Source: Nanobdellota archaeon (GTDB lineage Archaea; Nanobdellota; Nanobdellia; Pacearchaeales; GW2011-AR1). From it: a DNA stretch of 64,000 nt. Location: assembly GCA_038045445.1 (NCBI GenBank), contig JBBSYC010000001.1, forward strand, positions 35,140 to 99,139. The letters run 5' to 3'. Position numbers and translations under genes: made by a program. Within the stretch, counting starts at the first letter, position 1, and every line of letters begins with the position of its first letter. The notes below the pieces were generated by a model. That model saw nothing but the letters and a program-made list of their open reading frames with translations. It was not told where the DNA came from and did no database searches. Of the stretch, positions 18,701 through 27,151 are shown piece after piece.

Positions 18701-19201
18701 ATGAGTCGACAGTTTTTTTCAAAAAACTTTTTTGTTTATTCTGCTTTGGCTTTATTAGGTATCATGTTTTTTGCAGGATATCTTAACTTTTCGTTTAAGG
18801 AAGATTTGTTTTTTGAACCTCCAATATATGAAGATTCTGTTTTAGACTGCAATGGATGTGTTTATGGAGTCAAATCTGAATCGGAGGTTTTTGATGGAAT
18901 TGGTTCTGAAGTCAAGGCAAAGGCGGATGCATTAATTAAATGTGAAATTGCAAAGTTATCTGTCAAGTCTTCGGATGGTTGCGAAAGATTAGATGGCACT
19001 ATTTCTGAACCTTGCATGTTAGATTATTGTATAAATTATGCTGAAGCAGATTCTTATGGTTTTGCAGATGTTTGCGTTGATAGGTATGGTCAAGATGGAA
19101 ATTATGTTAAAACTTTATGCAGAAAAGATAGAGATGTTAGTATATCTCCAGGATGGCGTTGTTATGCTGGTAATGTAATTGCTAGTCAAGATTCTTGTTG
19201 A
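18701..19201 (+). CDS. secreted/membrane-anchored Cys-rich hypothetical protein
   Basis: N-terminal hydrophobic helix followed by a 130-aa region with 12 Cys. Confidence 0.35.
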   Translation: MSRQFFSKNFFVYSALALLGIMFFAGYLNFSFKEDLFFEPPIYEDSVLDCNGCVYGVKSESEVFDGIGSEVKAKADALIKCEIAKLSVKSSDGCERLDGTISEPCMLDYCINYAEADSYGFADVCVDRYGQDGNYVKTLCRKDRDVSISPGWRCYAGNVIASQDSC

Positions 19202-19224
19202 TCAATGCATATTTTACATACATA

Positions 19225-19272
19225 GTCCACTCGAGAGATGAATTGTCCACTCAAAATAGGGTTTTGTCCACT
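19225..19272 (+). repeat. three direct GTCCACT iterons spaced 20-21 bp apart (left boundary of island)
   Basis: GTCCACT at 19225-19231, 19245-19251 and 19266-19272. Confidence 0.7.
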
Positions 19273-19314
19273 GAGTACATAAATGTTTAAGTAAACAAAA
19301 TTTGTCTCAGTTTT

Positions 19315-19644
19315 ATGGTAGACAATATGTTAAACATCGGAAGTCCAATAAAAGAGTTTATAGAACAAACTAAGAATCAAGCTTTAGCTGGACTCGGAGA
19401 CTGGGAGTTTAAAGCTCCTATTGAATTAGAACTCAATGCTATTGTTTCTGGAAAAGTTGGCGGAGGAATTGACATCAAAGTCATTAATTTTGGAGCTAAA
19501 GTTGAGGCCGAACAACAGCAGAAAATTAAGATATCTATAGGTCCAAAAGACGAAGCAGAACAAGAAGAAAAGAAAGCAAGAGTGGCAGTAGCAAAGAAGA
19601 TACAATGGAATCCTAGCCACGGAATACCTAACGCTAATAAGTAA
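19315..19644 (+). CDS. hypothetical protein (island cargo)
   Basis: ORF track; Lys/Glu-rich C-terminus; no motif recognised. Confidence 0.3.
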   Translation: MVDNMLNIGSPIKEFIEQTKNQALAGLGDWEFKAPIELELNAIVSGKVGGGIDIKVINFGAKVEAEQQQKIKISIGPKDEAEQEEKKARVAVAKKIQWNPSHGIPNANK

Positions 19645-19714
19645 AATTCTATTTATGTGCAAAGCCTGTTGTCTTAAAAGAAAGAATTTTAAACACCAAT
19701 ATTCTCGATTTTAG

Positions 19715-20023
19715 ATGGAAAGACCATTAACAGCTCAAGAAAAAAGAATGACTCAGAATGTAGGTGGAGCTATTTTCATATTTGCAGGAATTTATCTTTT
19801 CATCAAAGGTCAAATGGACGGATTATCCTTAGGAGTTCTTTTGATAATGGGTTTTGGAATCAGCCAAGATGCTAGAAATATTGGCTTATTTGCTTTGAAG
19901 TATATTTTTGCAAAAGTTACAAGGTCCCAAGTTCCAACTTATGACTTGTCAAAAGGTAAGATAACTCAGACATCTGGAAGAGATTCTATAGTTAATCATG
20001 GAACTATAATATATCATAAATAA
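19715..20023 (+). CDS. small membrane protein (2 TM)
   Basis: Hydrophobic helices AIFIFAGIYLFI and LSLGVLLIMGFGI. Confidence 0.3.
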   Translation: MERPLTAQEKRMTQNVGGAIFIFAGIYLFIKGQMDGLSLGVLLIMGFGISQDARNIGLFALKYIFAKVTRSQVPTYDLSKGKITQTSGRDSIVNHGTIIYHK

Positions 20024-20183
20024 TTATTATTAAGTTCAATAATGTTTATAAACAAGAGATGTATAATTATATCATGATGAGTGTTGATTTTAATTCTAGT
20101 TGTTTTCGTCGCTTATATGATAATTCTTCTCTATGGTTAGGTTTAAAAACTGAAAGGTTGCTGTCATTATAGGATTAAGACAC

Positions 20184-20342
20184 ATGACCAACAAAAAACC
20201 GAATAAAATACAAAAATTAAGAAATAAGCTTAGAGAGCAAGGCAAAGTTATAGAAATGCTCTCTAACAAGAAAGCTGTAAAAGGCCTAATTTCAGCATTG
20301 GATGATGTTAAGAATGGTGACTACATTATTCTAACAAACTAA
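20184..20342 (+). CDS. small hypothetical protein (52 aa), possibly antitoxin-like
   Basis: Hand-translated MTNKKPNKIQKLRNKLREQGKVIEMLSNKKAVKGLISALDDVKNGDYIILTN. Not in the track (under 60 aa). Converges on the RelE-like gene. Confidence 0.25.
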   Translation: MTNKKPNKIQKLRNKLREQGKVIEMLSNKKAVKGLISALDDVKNGDYIILTN

Positions 20343-20346
20343 ATTT

Positions 20347-20688
20347 TTAAATTTTATCTTTAAATTCTTCTTTTATTTTTTCAAGTCTCTCAAATAACTT
20401 TTTGTATTCTTTTGATTTAGTATAATTTTCATCATGATCTAAAACTGGACCCAAGACGAATGCTACAACTAAAGAGTTTTCTATTCTAATACAATACACT
20501 CTATACTTTGAACCTACTTTTATTTCACAAAATCCACCATGTTGATAAGACATTGGTTTTGCTATATCTTGGTTGGTAATCAAGCTATTTACTTTCTTTT
20601 CAACGGCGATACGCCAAGTATTTCCAAGATCGTTTAAACTATCCAAATAAGTCTTAGTCTGATATATTTTGATTTTTTTGTTTGTCAT
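20347..20688 (-). CDS. RelE/ParE-family toxin
   Basis: C-terminal GFCEIKVGSKYRVYCIRIENSLVVAFVLGPVLDHDENY fits the RelE/ParE pattern. 4-bp overlap with the upstream RHH gene. Confidence 0.6.
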   Translation of the reverse strand: MTNKKIKIYQTKTYLDSLNDLGNTWRIAVEKKVNSLITNQDIAKPMSYQHGGFCEIKVGSKYRVYCIRIENSLVVAFVLGPVLDHDENYTKSKEYKKLFERLEKIKEEFKDKI

Positions 20689-21230
20689 TTTATCTCCTTT
20701 TTTAAATAAGAAATAAATAAAAGAATTCTATCGTCTTCTGCACCTTCTAATGCGACAGCTTTTACTTTTATCAGCTCAGATTTAATAGTTCCAACAATAT
20801 TTTTCATAATTTCACTAATTTTGCTAATATCTGTTTTTTTCATTGCAAAATGAATATAAATTCCATTTACAGCGGTACGATCTAAATTGTTAATTCTATT
20901 CTCTATATTTTCTAGACTTTCTTCAAACATAAAGGTCTCATTCTTATCAATTACATTAATAATATCGCGATAAACATAACTTGGAGCATTCCCTAAATAT
21001 TTCTTTATTGTTTCTAGATGAATCTTAAGAGAGGGCATATGTTCTATAACTTTTTCTAAATCTTTAAACTCCCATTCATGAAGATCAATAAACTGTTCAA
21101 TAGCCATGTTTGTCAAGGCAGTAATAGTTTTACTCTTTTTCTCTGCGAGTGTTGAAAGACGAGTATGTAAATCTTTTTTCAAACGAATTACTACGGATTC
21201 TTCATCAGTCTTTTTTAAGTCTTCTATCAT
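20685..21230 (-). CDS. ribbon-helix-helix (CopG-like) antitoxin with a long uncharacterised C-terminal extension
   Basis: N-terminal VVIRLKKDLHTRLSTLAEKKSKTITALTNMAIEQFI is a classic RHH. 181 aa total. ATGA overlap with the toxin. Confidence 0.5.
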   Translation of the reverse strand: MIEDLKKTDEESVVIRLKKDLHTRLSTLAEKKSKTITALTNMAIEQFIDLHEWEFKDLEKVIEHMPSLKIHLETIKKYLGNAPSYVYRDIINVIDKNETFMFEESLENIENRINNLDRTAVNGIYIHFAMKKTDISKISEIMKNIVGTIKSELIKVKAVALEGAEDDRILLFISYLKKEIK

Positions 21231-21284
21231 GTTAGTAACACGTTGTATACAACTTGATACTACTTATAAATCTTTTGATTTTCG

Positions 21285-22214
21285 TTATGATTTTCCAATA
21301 ATCACTAAGTTGTGAATTAAAGCTTTCAACATCAACTCATTATCTCTTGCAACATCATTTCTAGTTCTCAGCCAGTTCATTGAACGCCTTTTTATTGTAG
21401 ATATTACTCCTTCTACTCCCCATCTGTATCTATAAGCATCTCTAAATCTTTCATGATTCTTTTTGTATAAGTTGAAAGCAGTGTTCCAAGCCTTACTTCC
21501 ACCTCCAAATTTGCTGTTTGATCTAAAGTTGATGAAAGCATTTTGAATTCCTAATTCCTCAGTTAATTCATAATGCCTTTTGCTTAGATAACCTGCGTCT
21601 GCTAATACTGTGTTCAAATCAAATCCATTGAATTTAACTGCAGTTACAATCTCCTCAAAGAATTTAGCATCATGTTCCGTTCCTTGAGAAGTTCTAGCAT
21701 AGGCTATTACCTTACTATCTCTAATTATTCCAATATGTAATTTTCTAGTCTTTCTAAGTGATGGAATCCCACTATGTCTTTTGCTTGCAGGTTTGTTAGT
21801 AAAACCTCCAACATACATTTTCAAGCCCATCCAAGTGCTATCTAAAATAAGAGTTTGATTGCTTCTGATAAATTGCCTTGCAGATTCTTGAATGAGTAAC
21901 CCTAGAAGTTTGTAAGTCTCTATACTATTCATATATTTACAGACAGCACTTCTTTTTATCGGGTGAGAGATAATACCTTGTCTTTGTGCAAATAGCATTT
22001 CACTATACCCTTTTCTGTAAGAATTACTTGGATAAGCCATTAATAACAAACATTTCAAAGCATTTTTGTAATGTGGTCTTATTTGTTCATCAGAAAATTT
22101 ATCAAAGAAATTTGCAAGAGTTGATGAATAATTGTATTTTTCTAATTCAAGAGCTTCATCTTTTATTATAGGAACTATGATTTTTCTTTCTAGCAATGGA
22201 GTTTGTTGTATCAT
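21285..22214 (-). mobile_element. DDE transposase (IS4/IS5-superfamily-like) of an insertion sequence
   Basis: Candidate DDE residues in LDSTW, VLADAGY and YRYRWGVEGVISTIKRR; 309 aa. Terminal inverted repeats not confidently identified. Confidence 0.6.
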
Positions 22215-22215
22215 G

Positions 22216-22575
22216 TTAATACCTCAACTCTCTAAACTCAACTTTTCCTTCTTCTACCATTTTCTTAATTCTTTCTTGTTTTGGAGACAGTTTTGAGCCC
22301 CCAGTTTTTATTTCAATAAACTTGATAGTATCTTCATCAAAACAAAGTCCATCTATAGGCATTCCTAAATGTATGAATGTTTCTTTAGAACCCGGAAAGT
22401 CTTTTGTAAATGGTGCAAAATGTTCAAAGGTCTTTCCGAACTTTACATATGCAGAACGTAAATCGTGTTTGCATTTATCTAATTCTGTTTGGATAGTCTT
22501 ATTTTGTCTTACAGTTCTAGAGATAAAATAGACTGCTATGCCTATGATTGTTAAAGCCGTTATTTCGGTTATCAT
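22216..22575 (-). CDS. membrane-anchored PD-(D/E)xK-like nuclease-fold protein
   Basis: N-terminal TM (ITALTIIGIAVYFI), then GMPIDGLCFDEDTIKFIEIKTG matching a D...E.K restriction-endonuclease-like core. Abuts the transposase start. Confidence 0.4.
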   Translation of the reverse strand: MITEITALTIIGIAVYFISRTVRQNKTIQTELDKCKHDLRSAYVKFGKTFEHFAPFTKDFPGSKETFIHLGMPIDGLCFDEDTIKFIEIKTGGSKLSPKQERIKKMVEEGKVEFRELRY

Positions 22576-22702
22576 TTTTGTTCATATCATAACCTCTTAC
22601 ACTTTAATAGTGTATTATTACCTAAATAACAGTTGTAATAGGCCTATTTAAATATTTCCCGTCAAATTAATACTTAATCAGAGTAATAACACACTAGTTA
22701 GT

Positions 22703-22712
22703 TTTATATATA
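22703..22712 (+). promoter_or_regulatory. TATA-box-like element about 24 bp upstream of the AbrB-like gene start (possible leaderless transcript)
   Basis: TTTTATATAT in the divergent intergenic region. Confidence 0.25.
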
Positions 22713-22730
22713 TGTAAAATTTATAATTTT

Positions 22731-22940
22731 ATGGAACGTGGAGACTTCGTAGAAACAATAGAAAAAGAAGTTACATTACAATACTCAAAACCTAAAAATA
22801 GAACTCAAGGTCATTTTTTTATGCAAATACCAAAAGAAATAGCTAGAAATTTGAATTTAAAAAAAGGAGATAAAGTAATAATGCGAAGTCCTATAAAAAA
22901 TAAATCTGAATACTCCATCAGATTCAAAAAACTACCATGA
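22731..22940 (+). CDS. AbrB/MazE (SpoVT-AbrB) fold small DNA-binding protein
   Basis: HFFMQIPKEIARNLNLKKGDKV resembles the swapped-hairpin motif. ATGA overlap with the next gene. Confidence 0.45.
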   Translation: MERGDFVETIEKEVTLQYSKPKNRTQGHFFMQIPKEIARNLNLKKGDKVIMRSPIKNKSEYSIRFKKLP

Positions 22941-23170
22941 CATTCTACAAAAAAAAGAAAAGGTTTCACCCTTATGATGAAGCAATCCTTCAAGTTTTTG
23001 CTAATACAGACAAGATTGTGACTCCGGGGGAAGTTGCGGATTATCTGGGAATACCCCCTGCAACTGTTAAAAGAAGAATTCTAAAATTGATGAGAAAAAG
23101 ATATATTAGTTGTAAATTAGAAGGAAAAAGATTGTATTGTCAAAAAGGTTCTAAAGAAATTGAGATCTAA
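22937..23170 (+). CDS. winged-HTH transcriptional regulator
   Basis: TPGEVADYLGIPPATVKRRILKLMRKRYI HTH region. Confidence 0.5.
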   Translation: MTFYKKKKRFHPYDEAILQVFANTDKIVTPGEVADYLGIPPATVKRRILKLMRKRYISCKLEGKRLYCQKGSKEIEI

Positions 23171-24157
23171 TCATGCTAAGTCGATTATGATTGCACTAAT
23201 ATTTTGAAATTGAAGAGGTATTTGACCAAACTGCCAACCTCTAGCAGTCATTTCAATATAATAATATTTTTTACCATTGTTTTCAAAGTAAGGAGCATTA
23301 ACATTTTCACCTAATACCCCTATAGCCATATGTCCTGGAAATAATAACAATTTGACATCAAAACCTAATTTATTTAGTAGTGCTGCTGCTAAAATTGAGA
23401 CATCTTCACAATCACCAGTTCCATCACTGAATGTTTGCATTGGATATTTAGTGTAATCGTTATAACCAACTAAAATATCACTAGTATAATGTAGGCTTTG
23501 TACAAATGTTGCAACAAACATAACCTTATCATAATAATCCCAATTTAATTGTGTAGAATTGTCCATAGTAATCTTTAATGTTTGTGCAAATCTATTAACT
23601 CCTAAGTCTTCTGAATTAATAAATGATGGATAATATATTTCATCATCTATTCTATTTGGCCTGACAATTTTCTCATAATATGAAATCACATCAGATGGAA
23701 TTGTTACATCTCCACTCCACGTTCTGCTATCAAACACCCATTCAATGTGTTTTACGATATTTCTATCTCCACCAATGGGATGATCATCGTACTTGTCTGG
23801 GACTCCATCTCTATCAGTATCCGAATCTAAATCTGAAGTGCCTAAACTATTTTCTTGTCTTAAAGTCAATCCATCACGATCTTTATCTGAATTTAAGTTT
23901 GCTTCTTGTTGTTTTTGTGCTTCAATAGCATTCCTTTGTGAGTCTGCAACATCCTGTGCTATTTTTCTTTGGAGTTCCTCTTCAGTTAAAGCACTCTGTA
24001 GATTATTATTTTCTTGCTGTTGTTGTAATAAATCATTTTCTGTTTGATTTATTCTTTCATTCATTAAATAGAACTGATAAACTCCATAAAATAATAAAAA
24101 AAGAAAGACAAACATCGTTAAACTCTTTGAAAGTCGTCTGAAAACACTATCTTTCAT
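23171..24157 (-). CDS. membrane-anchored transglutaminase-like cysteine protease-fold protein with TSP3-like Ca-binding Asp repeats
   Basis: N-terminal TM, Gln-rich coiled coil, DKDRDGL / DSDTDRDGVPDKYDDHP Asp-rich repeats, and GDCEDVSILAAALLNKLGF...PGHMAIGV (Cys/His core of the transglutaminase-like superfamily). Confidence 0.55.
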   Translation of the reverse strand: MKDSVFRRLSKSLTMFVFLFLLFYGVYQFYLMNERINQTENDLLQQQQENNNLQSALTEEELQRKIAQDVADSQRNAIEAQKQQEANLNSDKDRDGLTLRQENSLGTSDLDSDTDRDGVPDKYDDHPIGGDRNIVKHIEWVFDSRTWSGDVTIPSDVISYYEKIVRPNRIDDEIYYPSFINSEDLGVNRFAQTLKITMDNSTQLNWDYYDKVMFVATFVQSLHYTSDILVGYNDYTKYPMQTFSDGTGDCEDVSILAAALLNKLGFDVKLLLFPGHMAIGVLGENVNAPYFENNGKKYYYIEMTARGWQFGQIPLQFQNISAIIIDLA

Positions 24158-24213
24158 GTATGTGTGCGTGAAAACCCATTAATAAAGATTATGTTATAGG
24201 TGGTGGAGGCATA

Positions 24214-24370
24214 CATGAGAGTCAGATATGTTAATATTTCTATTCCAGAAGAATTAGTAAAAGAGGTAGATGAATTTATTAAAAAATCAAAAAGTGGTTA
24301 CAGATCAAGAGCAGAGTTTTTGTCAGAGGCAATTAGATTTAGGTTAGGGTTGTTGGAACCTAAAAAATAA
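24214..24370 (+). pseudogene. ribbon-helix-helix (CopG/NikR-like) gene interrupted by a +1 frameshift
   Basis: SD GGAGGC 6 nt upstream. Frame 1 gives MRVRYVNISIPEELVKEVDEFIKKSKSGY then stops at 24334. The +1 frame continues RSRAEFLSEAIRFRLGLLEPKK (classic GY-RSRAE..AIR helix 2). An extra C at the TAC-CAG junction (about 24300-24301) separates them. Confidence 0.5.
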
Positions 24371-24378
24371 GAGTTCTC

Positions 24379-24427
24379 AGTGGACACTTGGTGGACAGTC
24401 AGTGGACAAAAGATGGTACAGTGGACT
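24379..24427 (+). repeat. tandem AGTGGACA iterons (4-5 copies, 11-bp spacing), inverted relative to the left-hand GTCCACT array
   Basis: AGTGGACA at 24379-24386, 24390-24397 (GGTGGACA), 24401-24408, a degenerate copy near 24412-24419, and AGTGGACT at 24420-24427. Confidence 0.7.
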
Positions 24428-24476
24428 GTGTATATTTTACAATAATGTTTAAATAGACTCTTTATTAATTTTTTTT

Positions 24477-24887
24477 ATGGTAAAAATAGGAAATGTTGGC
24501 ATAGGATTATTAGCATCAGTTCTTTCTTCTTGTCAGGTTCCCAAGGTTGAAAAACCTAGTTATGATGACTTTGGTTTAAGGGTGAGGGCTTTGGTTTTAG
24601 GGGAAGGAGTTCTTTCACCGAGAGGTTATCTTGAAGGGTATGGGGGAATGCCTTCTTATTTTTTATGGGTTCGCCCAGAGGGTCAGGATTCTATTTACGG
24701 AGTTGTAATCTCTGAAGGTTCAAAATCCATAGAAGCGCTCGACAAGTCTATTTCTCCTGGAGATTTTATTCATTTTGATGCCGAAACATTTCGGAATAAT
24801 ACTGGTTCTAATAATTTGGTAAGACTAACAAGCTCGGATGTTTTTCCTGTTGAAAGGATACATATTCCTATACATATTCCTAAGTGA
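24477..24887 (+). CDS. secreted or lipoprotein-like hypothetical protein
   Basis: N-terminal GIGLLASVLSSC signal/lipobox-like segment. Confidence 0.3.
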   Translation: MVKIGNVGIGLLASVLSSCQVPKVEKPSYDDFGLRVRALVLGEGVLSPRGYLEGYGGMPSYFLWVRPEGQDSIYGVVISEGSKSIEALDKSISPGDFIHFDAETFRNNTGSNNLVRLTSSDVFPVERIHIPIHIPK

Positions 24888-26544: not shown

Positions 26545-26775
26545 ATGGCTTCAATACAAGTAAAAGTAAGAAAATGGGGGAATTCATTAGGAGTTATTTT
26601 GCCTAGTGATACTGTCGAAAATGAAAAAATAAAAGAGAGCGATAACATCAATGTAATAATTGTCAAGGACTCGAGGAAAGCTTTTAGAGAAACTTTTGGG
26701 ATGCTTAAAGGAAAACTTAAGGGAACTGCACAAGAGTTTAAGGATGAGACAAGAAGGGAACTCTATAATCGTTGA
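26545..26775 (+). CDS. vapB: VapB-like antitoxin (SpoVT/AbrB domain)
   Basis: VRKWGNSLGVILPSD swapped-hairpin motif; overlaps the downstream PIN gene. Confidence 0.6.
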   Translation: MASIQVKVRKWGNSLGVILPSDTVENEKIKESDNINVIIVKDSRKAFRETFGMLKGKLKGTAQEFKDETRRELYNR

Positions 26776-27151
26776 TGAATCTGAGCAGGAAGAATTCTTT
26801 TTTGATTCCTACGCTATCTTTGAAATTCTTAATGGAAATGTTAATTATAAAAGATATGAATATTCTAAAATTATAATTACACAGTTAAATCTTTTTGAGG
26901 TTTATTTAAAAGTACTTAGAGATTCTAGTGAAAAAAATGCAGATGAAGTAATAGCTAAGTATTGCATATTTAGCATAGATTTTGATGAAGAAGTTATAAA
27001 AGAAGCAGCAAAACTTAAAATTTTATTAAATAAAAGAGATATCTCCATGACTGATTGTATTGGATACTGTTTGGCTAAACAATTAGATATAAAATTCTTA
27101 ACAGGAGATAATGCTTTTGAAAAACTTGACAATGTTGAGTTTGTTAAGTAA
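26744..27151 (+). CDS. vapC: VapC PIN-domain toxin
   Basis: PIN acidic residues in FFFDSYAIFEIL, SMTDCIGYCLA and FLTGDNAF. Start placed at ATG 26744, overlapping vapB by 32 nt (the track's 26660 start is in another frame of vapB). Confidence 0.65.
   Translation: MRQEGNSIIVDESEQEEFFFDSYAIFEILNGNVNYKRYEYSKIIITQLNLFEVYLKVLRDSSEKNADEVIAKYCIFSIDFDEEVIKEAAKLKILLNKRDISMTDCIGYCLAKQLDIKFLTGDNAFEKLDNVEFVK

Follow-up and report, generated by a model that had tools for sequence, protein, structure and literature searches.

Evidence for a family of cargo-carrying DDE transposons in DPANN archaea that insert just upstream of promoters

Several described systems bear on the element reported here. Insertion sequences of the IS5 family are single-gene elements of about 1 kb; their transposases, about 300 aa long, carry a DDE triad and a Y-x2-R-x3-E-x6-K motif, their inverted termini are short, and the IS903 group makes a 9-bp duplication of the target. 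In Tn7, a DDE enzyme of the TnsB/integrase type is accompanied by the restriction-endonuclease-fold nuclease TnsA, an AAA+ protein (TnsC/TniB) and TniQ; Tn7 carries cargo, has asymmetric ends with several binding sites, and inserts in one orientation at a fixed distance from a single attachment site, duplicating 5 bp and leaving the neighbouring gene intact. Ty3, Ty1 and Dictyostelium TRE5-A are eukaryotic retrotransposons with integrases, for which targeting of RNA polymerase III promoters through protein contacts, via TFIIIB (TBP plus the TFB-related Brf1), has been proven. The XerC site of dif/pdif is the landmark for the IS1202 family, whose members insert 5 bp away from it (PMC10132070). 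Here we analyse an island at positions 19219-24432 of a 64-kb stretch of DNA (the window) from a DPANN ('Nanoarchaeota') genome assembled from Hainich groundwater. We consider it very likely that this island is one 5,214-bp DDE transposon with passenger genes, that arrays of the heptamer GTCCACT are its ends, and that the family to which it belongs targets promoters. A literature search, in an incomplete collection, turned up no earlier account of this family or of its ends and target rule.

The original prediction, made from the window's sequence, had described the island as bounded by inverted GTCCACT arrays and had read these as iterons of an integrated or plasmid-like element, expressly not as transposon ends. 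The heptamer occurs 11 times in the window, where shuffled sequences lead one to expect 3.3 copies. The two arrays account for six of the 11, and the other five are isolated. At the left edge the three direct copies were as predicted: they start at 19225, 19245 and 19266 on the + strand, with spacing of 20 and 21 and offsets of 0, 20 and 41. The chance expectation of such a same-strand triple inside 48 bp is about 2e-6. The right edge does carry a reverse-complement array, but not the four to five copies spaced 11 bp that had been proposed. There are three exact copies on the - strand (24379-24385, 24401-24407 and 24420-24426) and one copy with a single mismatch, GTCCACC (GGTGGAC on the + strand), at 24390-24396, whereas the supposed fifth copy at 24411-24419 (GATGGTAC) does not match the heptamer. 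The spacing is 11, 11 and 19, and the offsets from the terminal copy are 0, 19, 30 and 41; the right end thus carries one site more than the left.

Two features around the arrays had been missed. The outermost heptamers of both arrays are part of 13-bp terminal inverted repeats, TACAYAGTCCACT, which bound the 5,214-bp unit, and these termini abut a 9-bp direct repeat, TATTTTACA, at 19210-19218 and 24433-24441. When the left end is aligned with the reverse complement of the right end, the segments ATACAYAGTCCACT, TTGTCCACT and TGTCCACTGAG match with equal spacing at both. As inverted termini with a short flanking direct repeat are the signature of DDE transposition, we read the arrays as transposon ends.

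The empty site was also found. The element with identical sequence at this site is present in about 20 contigs from several samples. In contig L026 (Hain_H51_01um_R3_1170; 22 kb, coverage 39.5), which comes from a sister groundwater sample (well H51), window positions 19164-19218 continue straight into 24442 onward, with one copy of TATTTTACA and the target promoter intact. Because the repeat is far below the assembly k-mer length, this junction represents a genuine empty allele. Two further contigs (L006 and L021) end exactly at 19218, where the assembly graph is expected to branch. Thus, 19219-24432 is a discrete, precise and horizontally acquired insertion between chromosomal genes that is polymorphic in the population, and on this point the prediction was borne out. 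Base composition alone is not diagnostic of the island: GC content is 27-33% in the element and about 33-36% outside, and the GC-skew dip tracks gene strand.

The protein that would mobilize the element belongs to the DDE_Tnp_1 superfamily (IS4/IS5/IS1182-type). It matched PF01609 with 64.4 bits (cut-off 23; E = 1.5e-17), and residues D125, D206, E268, Y261, R264 and K275, which make up the DDE and YREK signatures, were invariant in an alignment of seven sequences. An exhaustive search with a transposase profile gave about 30 clusters (50% identity) above 200 bits, inside 275 clusters at E < 1e-30. We collected 68 loci from species-representative genomes and JGI metagenomes, all of them from DPANN archaea where named, and scanned these for exact 9-mer direct repeats abutting inverted termini with at least 11 of 16 positions matching. 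This generic scan did better than a strict search for ends with GTCC triplets, which recovered about 10 loci only. It yielded 22 distinct complete elements, including that of the window, on Pace-, Woese- and Nanoarchaeota contigs; the transposases of the 21 others are 38-48% identical to the window's.

The 22 elements have a common anatomy. Each is flanked by an exact 9-bp duplication next to inverted termini, and the duplicated sequence differs between elements; together with the empty allele of the window's element, this identifies them as transposons in the general sense. The duplication and the GTCC core (GGAC in one element) are always 6 nt apart, the terminal consensus is near rACwmAGTCCrwAAAs, and further GTCC sites in the same orientation follow at quantised offsets of 11, 18-20, 28-30, 38-41 and 49-50 nt. 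Most elements have two to four exact GTCC sites per end. The window's element shares its particular end pattern with L009 and L034: 0, 18/19, 29/30 and 40/41 on the regulator side, and 0, 19/20 and 40/41 at the other end. The bases 3' of GTCC vary by element (ACT in the window; TTAAA, ATAAA or GAAAA elsewhere), which means that the sites co-vary with the element. As the geometry recurs in 21 other elements, the statement that the arrays are not transposon ends has to be given up.

The intact elements (21 of the 22) are 3.3-7.8 kb long with 5-14 open reading frames (ORFs) and cargo that varies from one to the next, which is not the architecture of a simple insertion sequence (a transposase gene alone in about 0.8-1.6 kb, with a single short inverted repeat at either end). 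The remaining one, L042 (6821-8124), has been reduced by deletion to 1,286 bp; its transposase is truncated, but its ends are intact. One 5,724-bp element occurs at two sites with different duplications (L072:316-6057 and L075:1173-6914). At L079:5699-5760 a further left end comes immediately after the right-hand duplication.

The insertion sites also share a pattern. Exactly 6 nt outward of the duplication, on one side of the element, a TATA-like box starts in 18 of the 22 elements; its sequence is TTTA[AT]A in 16 of them and CTTAAA in two. Given a background for the hexamer of 0.0025 per position in the same loci, P is about 7e-31; a uniform 16-position model for offset 6 gives P of about 1e-18. 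A single-end scan of all loci showed the same solitary spike at offset 6, and L105 fits too. The six bases between duplication and box are A-rich, as expected of the position of the TFB-recognition element (BRE). In the window, the ATG at 24477 lies 29 nt after the start of the TATA box. Of the 45 large ORFs of the window, 11 have a [TC]TTA[AT]A box that starts exactly this far ahead of the ATG (e.g. at 405, 13752, 24448, 31240 and 59662), which points to frequent leaderless transcription in this genome. L037 is inserted at a tRNA-Arg promoter with the gene 31 nt past the box, and in six of 14 testable targets an ORF starts 27-32 nt past the box, compared with 8% of background boxes (P = 8e-4); the flanking start codon or tRNA gene lies about 29-31 nt after the TATA box. 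The promoter adjoins the regulator-side end in 5/5 elements of the window's clade and the opposite end in 11/13 of the other clade (Fisher P = 0.0025). These sequences indicate that insertion in this family takes place directly in front of predicted archaeal BRE/TATA promoters, at a distance that is fixed and in an orientation that depends on the clade.

Two observations touch on this pattern. The promoter regions of two genes are 81% similar over 21 nt, at 19276-19296 for the first cargo gene and at 24438-24458 for the host gene beside the opposite end, and ATGTTTAARTA occurs only in these two places in the window. We considered and rejected a long attachment core or a nested event, as each copy precedes an ATG by 29 nt, which is also the arrangement at the 11 ORFs above; most likely they are two promoters of the same class, and a role in target choice is possible. 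A sister group (L100:1160-5417 and L102:1172-5556) has a nuclease and a transposase, 9-bp duplications and different termini (..TTGCACGGAAAC); in both, the duplication and a TATA-like CTTAWATA box beyond it are 24 nt apart instead of 6 nt.

In the window, the transposase gene is preceded by a gene for a 119-aa nuclease that matched PF10107 (E = 7.6e-13). In 34 homologues, both the catalytic residues (E...PD...ExK) and an N-terminal helix of the membrane type have been conserved, and the structural model (predicted local distance difference test, pLDDT, 88.5) most closely resembles VRR-NUC nucleases. The published account of PF10107 goes no further than the prediction of a secreted endonuclease with a relationship to Hjc (PMC3424549). 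At 13 of 13 independent loci examined, the gene next downstream of the nuclease gene, on the same strand, is a DDE_Tnp_1 gene; the pairing was seen in 5/5 contexts picked solely for contig size and extends to transposases only about 24% identical to the window's. The nuclease is also better conserved than the transposases (71% versus 48% identity between the window and L009). It thus appears to be a dedicated partner of the transposase in part of the group. By analogy, it is probably a second transposition nuclease, acting either in second-strand cleavage like TnsA or in the resolution of branched intermediates.

The other recurrent genes encode small DNA-binding proteins. In most elements a gene of the AbrB/SpoVT type, with the typical motif ..I.IPK.....L.L, is divergent from the transposase gene, and frequently a winged-helix gene comes next or is fused to it. 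The window's proteins are similar to those of L009 (AbrB-like 47%, winged helix 51-53% and a 181-aa ribbon-helix-helix (RHH)-type protein 34% identical). An iterated winged-helix profile drifted into transposases and was not used for counts. The divergent slot holds an RHH gene in L048 and genes for larger proteins in L035 and L037, and all three elements retain both arrays and the offset-6 target; this refilling of the slot by other folds suggests a replaceable regulator. We therefore think that, as far as gene arrangement can tell, the AbrB-like and winged-helix proteins are most likely regulators of transposase expression and not integral machinery. Possible regulator sites were noticed in two elements, where three to four copies of GGTACC spaced 25-30 nt lie between the AbrB-like and transposase genes (L010:432-495 and L036:6889-6970) as candidate operators. 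Two large elements (L036:5204-6055 and L063:5657-6631) encode an AbrB-like domain fused to a winged-helix-like region and then a C-terminal domain, which we take to be DUF488-like from its motifs.

The protein that binds the GTCC sites is most likely the transposase, by analogy with TnsB of Tn7 and MuA of Mu. The transposase is the most economical candidate because the terminal copy lies within the cleaved terminus, because the arrays do not depend on accessory genes (they persist in L035, L033, L048 and L037, in which no AbrB-like gene was detected), and because they are kept in the deletion derivative L042. The RHH protein, one of the two iteron binders suggested in the original prediction, is not a general binder, since RHH genes occur in only 4/22 elements and the arrays in 22/22. 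The winged-helix protein, its other candidate, is less likely than the transposase.

A different division of labour at the ends can be imagined, in which the element is a transposon with the transposase at the terminal site only, and the inner GTCC sites are bound by the AbrB-like and winged-helix proteins, acting as end-architecture factors or as TnsD-like selectors of BRE/TATA. The frequent presence of these genes next to the transposase gene would fit this, as would the clade-specific choice of the promoter-adjoining end; in addition, AbrB-type proteins bind AT-rich, bendable DNA. However, in all elements the inner sites have the same motif as the terminal one, and the different folds in the divergent slot of L048, L035 and L037 fit a replaceable regulator better. 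This role at the sites is less likely than binding by the transposase, and we judge the arrangement as a whole improbable. The offset-6 pattern, in turn, might reflect purifying selection in compact genomes, with survivors being those insertions that spare genes and promoters, and no choice of target. DPANN archaea indeed have very short intergenic regions, and the stop codon upstream of the duplication in the window is only 8 nt away from it. Yet the 9-bp duplication regenerates the sequence adjoining the TATA box, so that offsets of 0-5 and of more than 6 would be equally harmless, and 18/22 elements lie at exactly 6. Selection alone cannot explain such a spike; the clade-specific orientation weighs against it as well, and we regard it as very unlikely.

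Two further explanations would deny that the arrays are transposon ends at all. According to one, the island is the remnant of an integrated plasmid-like element, and the arrays are origin or partition iterons bound by an RHH or winged-helix protein. The spacing of the sites by one or two helical turns speaks for this, together with the small DNA-binding genes inside the island and an RHH gene that ends 8 nt before the right array. It is contradicted by the 9-bp duplication, the 13-bp inverted termini and the precise empty site, and also by the 21 other elements, at unrelated sites, in which the end anatomy travels with a homologous DDE transposase. A domain search found no Rep, Par or integrase gene among the island proteins, and in place of the single cluster expected of iterons, beside a Rep or ParA/ParB gene and without a duplication, there are two inverted arrays at the termini. 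Taken with the scarcity of RHH genes in the family, this leaves the iteron explanation highly improbable. We give still less credence, close to none, to the idea that the arrays are boxes for Orc1/Cdc6 at an archaeal replication origin, like those known as mini-origin recognition boxes (mini-ORB). It has in its favour the inverted orientation and a resemblance of CAGTGGACA to CCAGTGGAAA, which we take to be the core of mini-ORB boxes. The arrays are 5.2 kb apart in an insertion that the empty allele lacks, no orc1/cdc6 gene was found in the element by domain search, and the motif varies in relatives (GTCCGA, GTCCAT, etc.), always 6 nt from the duplication. An identity as replication origin was rejected because of the empty site and the duplication.

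Several points weigh against our preferred reading of the island as a promoter-targeting DDE transposon with multi-site ends, or against parts of it. The transposase does not reach the curated IS5 models (NCBIfam NF033578-81): its best match, NF033579 ('transpos_IS5_2'), scored 78.5 bits with a cut-off of 140. Its relatives P0002, P0006 and P0016 scored 85-101 bits on that model, which the more distant outgroup proteins P0036, P0040, P0050 and P0056 pass with 141-151 bits. Among solved structures, none is detectably related to the transposase by sequence. The scan requires an exact 9-mer repeat and inverted termini, so elements with other duplication lengths would be missed. Four of the 22 elements do not fit offset 6: L033 (offsets 7 and 8), L042 (8), L047 and L079. 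The GTCC sites are assigned to the transposase by analogy, by their membership in the terminal repeat and by their independence from accessory genes. An N-terminal membrane helix is odd for a transposition protein, and most members of the GTCC family lack the nuclease, which is thus not essential. Last, only a single copy of the element was seen in this genome.

Based on these results, we propose a model for the transposition of this element. It would move as a cut-and-insert DDE transposon, with the outermost GTCCACT 6 nt from the cleavage point. The inner copies, at offsets of one or two helical turns, would be further sites, most likely for the IS5-related transposase, and the sites, three at one end and four at the other, would probably assemble an asymmetric multi-subunit transpososome. 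On integration, a staggered cut of 9 bp would create the TATTTTACA duplication. In the window the cut lies where the BRE position of the 136-aa gene has its upstream edge, exactly 6 nt ahead of the TATA box, and it leaves the promoter intact. Recognition of the promoter could be through DNA sequence or shape, or through the TBP/TFB complex. We can extend the model to a possibility that we hold only tentatively, and more doubtful than not: that the family docks on the promoter-bound TBP/TFB complex, or on the DNA shape that it imposes, and inserts 6 bp upstream of TATA in a set orientation, and that in the nuclease branch the IS5-like DDE enzyme and its membrane-tethered, VRR-NUC-like partner form a two-nuclease machine. 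If this were true, the family would be an archaeal DNA-transposon counterpart of Ty3-type targeting of the pre-initiation complex, and the nuclease pairing would be an independent invention of the TnsA/TnsB principle.

How does this family compare with the described systems? It shares with IS5 the catalytic signature, the transposase length, the 9-bp duplication and the short inverted termini, and the nearest outgroup proteins of the window's transposase pass the IS5_2 cut-off. It differs from IS5 in that the family scores 78-101 bits, in that intact elements of 3.3-7.8 kb carry cargo and regulators, and in having three to four phased sites at its ends, a fixed distance to TATA boxes and, in a subset, a coupled PD-(D/E)xK nuclease. 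Like Tn7, it has asymmetric ends with three spaced and four closely packed putative binding sites (0/20/41 versus 0/19/30/41 in the window, and likewise in L009 and L034), an oriented insertion at a fixed distance from a landmark with the neighbouring gene intact, cargo and, by analogy only, a nuclease gene of the restriction-endonuclease fold beside the DDE enzyme. Unlike Tn7, the transposase is IS5-like, neither TnsC/TniB nor TniQ is found among the island proteins, the duplication is 9 bp, the nuclease is a PF10107 protein with a membrane helix and without a match to the TnsA family, and the landmark is a generic promoter element. The likeness to Ty3, Ty1 and TRE5-A is a functional parallel only. 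What is shared with Ty3 is a distance from a TBP/TFB-type promoter defined to the base pair, a 'safe haven' in a compact genome, and tRNA promoters among the targets (L037). Like the IS1202 family, the elements lie at a fixed distance and orientation beside a conserved protein-binding DNA site; the transposase family is another one, the landmark is a promoter instead of a recombination site, and the hosts are archaeal instead of bacterial.

The features of the window's element and its target are listed in Table 1. The gene content had largely been described correctly in the prediction, but not in two respects. The RHH gene next to the right array is not frameshifted: its homologues in three other elements are also 50-56 aa long. 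The 113-aa protein, called RelE, has no significant sequence match to a toxin family (the best matches, DUF4435 and Mlo, are far under the curated cut-offs); its AlphaFold2 model has a pLDDT of 55, and the top 50 fold matches in the PDB are all RelE/ParE/YoeB/HigB toxins. We consider it a probable RelE/ParE-fold toxin on the basis of this low-confidence model. The 181-aa protein encoded next to it has only weak RelB/HicB-type matches at its N-terminus, and its counterpart in L009 also lies downstream of the transposase gene.

Table 1. Features of the transposon and of its predicted target promoter (window positions)
Feature	Positions	Strand	Remarks
Target-site duplication, left copy, TATTTTACA	19210-19218	.	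Direct repeat of 24433-24441; single copy in empty-site contig L026
Transposon left end, downstream of transposase gene; terminal repeat TACATAGTCCACT at 19219-19231; GTCCACT x3	19219-19275	+	
Cargo gene, 109 aa, weak Trypco2-like match	19315-19644	+	Own TATA-like box TTTAAG at 19286, 29 nt before ATG
Cargo gene, 102 aa, hydrophobic, without family match	19715-20023	+	
Cargo ORF, 52 aa, without family match	20184-20342	+	
Cargo gene, 113 aa, probable RelE/ParE-fold toxin	20347-20688	-	Low-confidence model
181-aa protein, ribbon-helix-helix / RelB-like N-terminus	20685-21230	-	4-nt overlap with 113-aa gene
DDE transposase, 309 aa, PF01609, distantly IS5-like	21285-22214	-	D125, D206, E268 and Y-x2-R-x3-E-x6-K intact
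Predicted membrane-anchored PD-(D/E)xK nuclease, 119 aa, PF10107, VRR-NUC-like fold	22216-22575	-	Stop codon 1 nt from transposase start codon
AbrB/SpoVT-like small DNA-binding protein, divergent from nuclease-transposase operon	22731-22940	+	Conserved family partner
Winged-helix protein, 77 aa	22937-23170	+	Operon with AbrB-like gene
Cargo: membrane-anchored transglutaminase-like protein, 328 aa	23171-24157	-	Weak Transglut_core and LapG-like matches
Ribbon-helix-helix (CopG-type) gene, intact, about 50-56 aa	24200-24370	+	Recurrent accessory gene
Transposon right end, regulator side; terminal repeat TACACAGTCCACT, the reverse complement of 24420-24432; four sites	24379-24432	-	
Target-site duplication, right copy, TATTTTACA	24433-24441	.	
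Predicted host promoter targeted: BRE-position hexamer ATAATG 24442-24447; TATA box TTTAAATA 24448-24455; ATG of 136-aa gene 24477	24442-24479	+	Intact in empty-site contig

Other searches added little. For the island, a scan for sigma-70 promoters and terminators, which has no relevance to an archaeon, and Rfam gave nothing, nor did a tRNA search in L009, and the PADLOC defence models gave weak matches only, to the 113-aa and winged-helix proteins (E = 1.5e-4 to 7.5e-3, 14-19 bits). Sequence searches of the PDB with the transposase profile, the 113-aa protein and the nuclease found nothing, and no paralogy was found between the 109-aa and 136-aa proteins. The transglutaminase-like gene appears with lengths of 328, 314 or 297 aa, which are start choices of the gene caller; at the DNA level these versions show 100% identity. 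A possible operator or promoter was noticed at 22637-22654, where the nuclease-transposase operon and the AbrB-like gene diverge: a perfect 12-bp palindrome, AATAGGCCTATT, which overlaps a second palindromic sequence, TATTTAAATA. About 2 kb beyond the element, at 26545-27151, an AbrB/MazE-type gene overlaps a PIN-domain gene, as in a VapBC-like toxin-antitoxin pair.

These findings would have several consequences. The phased multi-site ends and the dedicated nuclease extend the known range of IS5-type enzymes, and they raise the mechanistic question of second-strand cleavage or resolution of intermediates. A rule that is linked to BRE and TATA with the precision of a base pair allows a direct in vitro test of how a transposase reads the promoter or the pre-initiation complex, and the same rule doubles as a computational marker of promoters in uncultured archaea without transcript data. 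As a compact system for oriented insertion upstream of promoters, the element could also serve archaeal genetics. Mobile elements are little known in DPANN archaea, whose genomes of roughly 1 Mb have almost no spare DNA. The family shows one solution for such genomes: cargo is carried, and the element appears to land just upstream of a promoter without damaging it.

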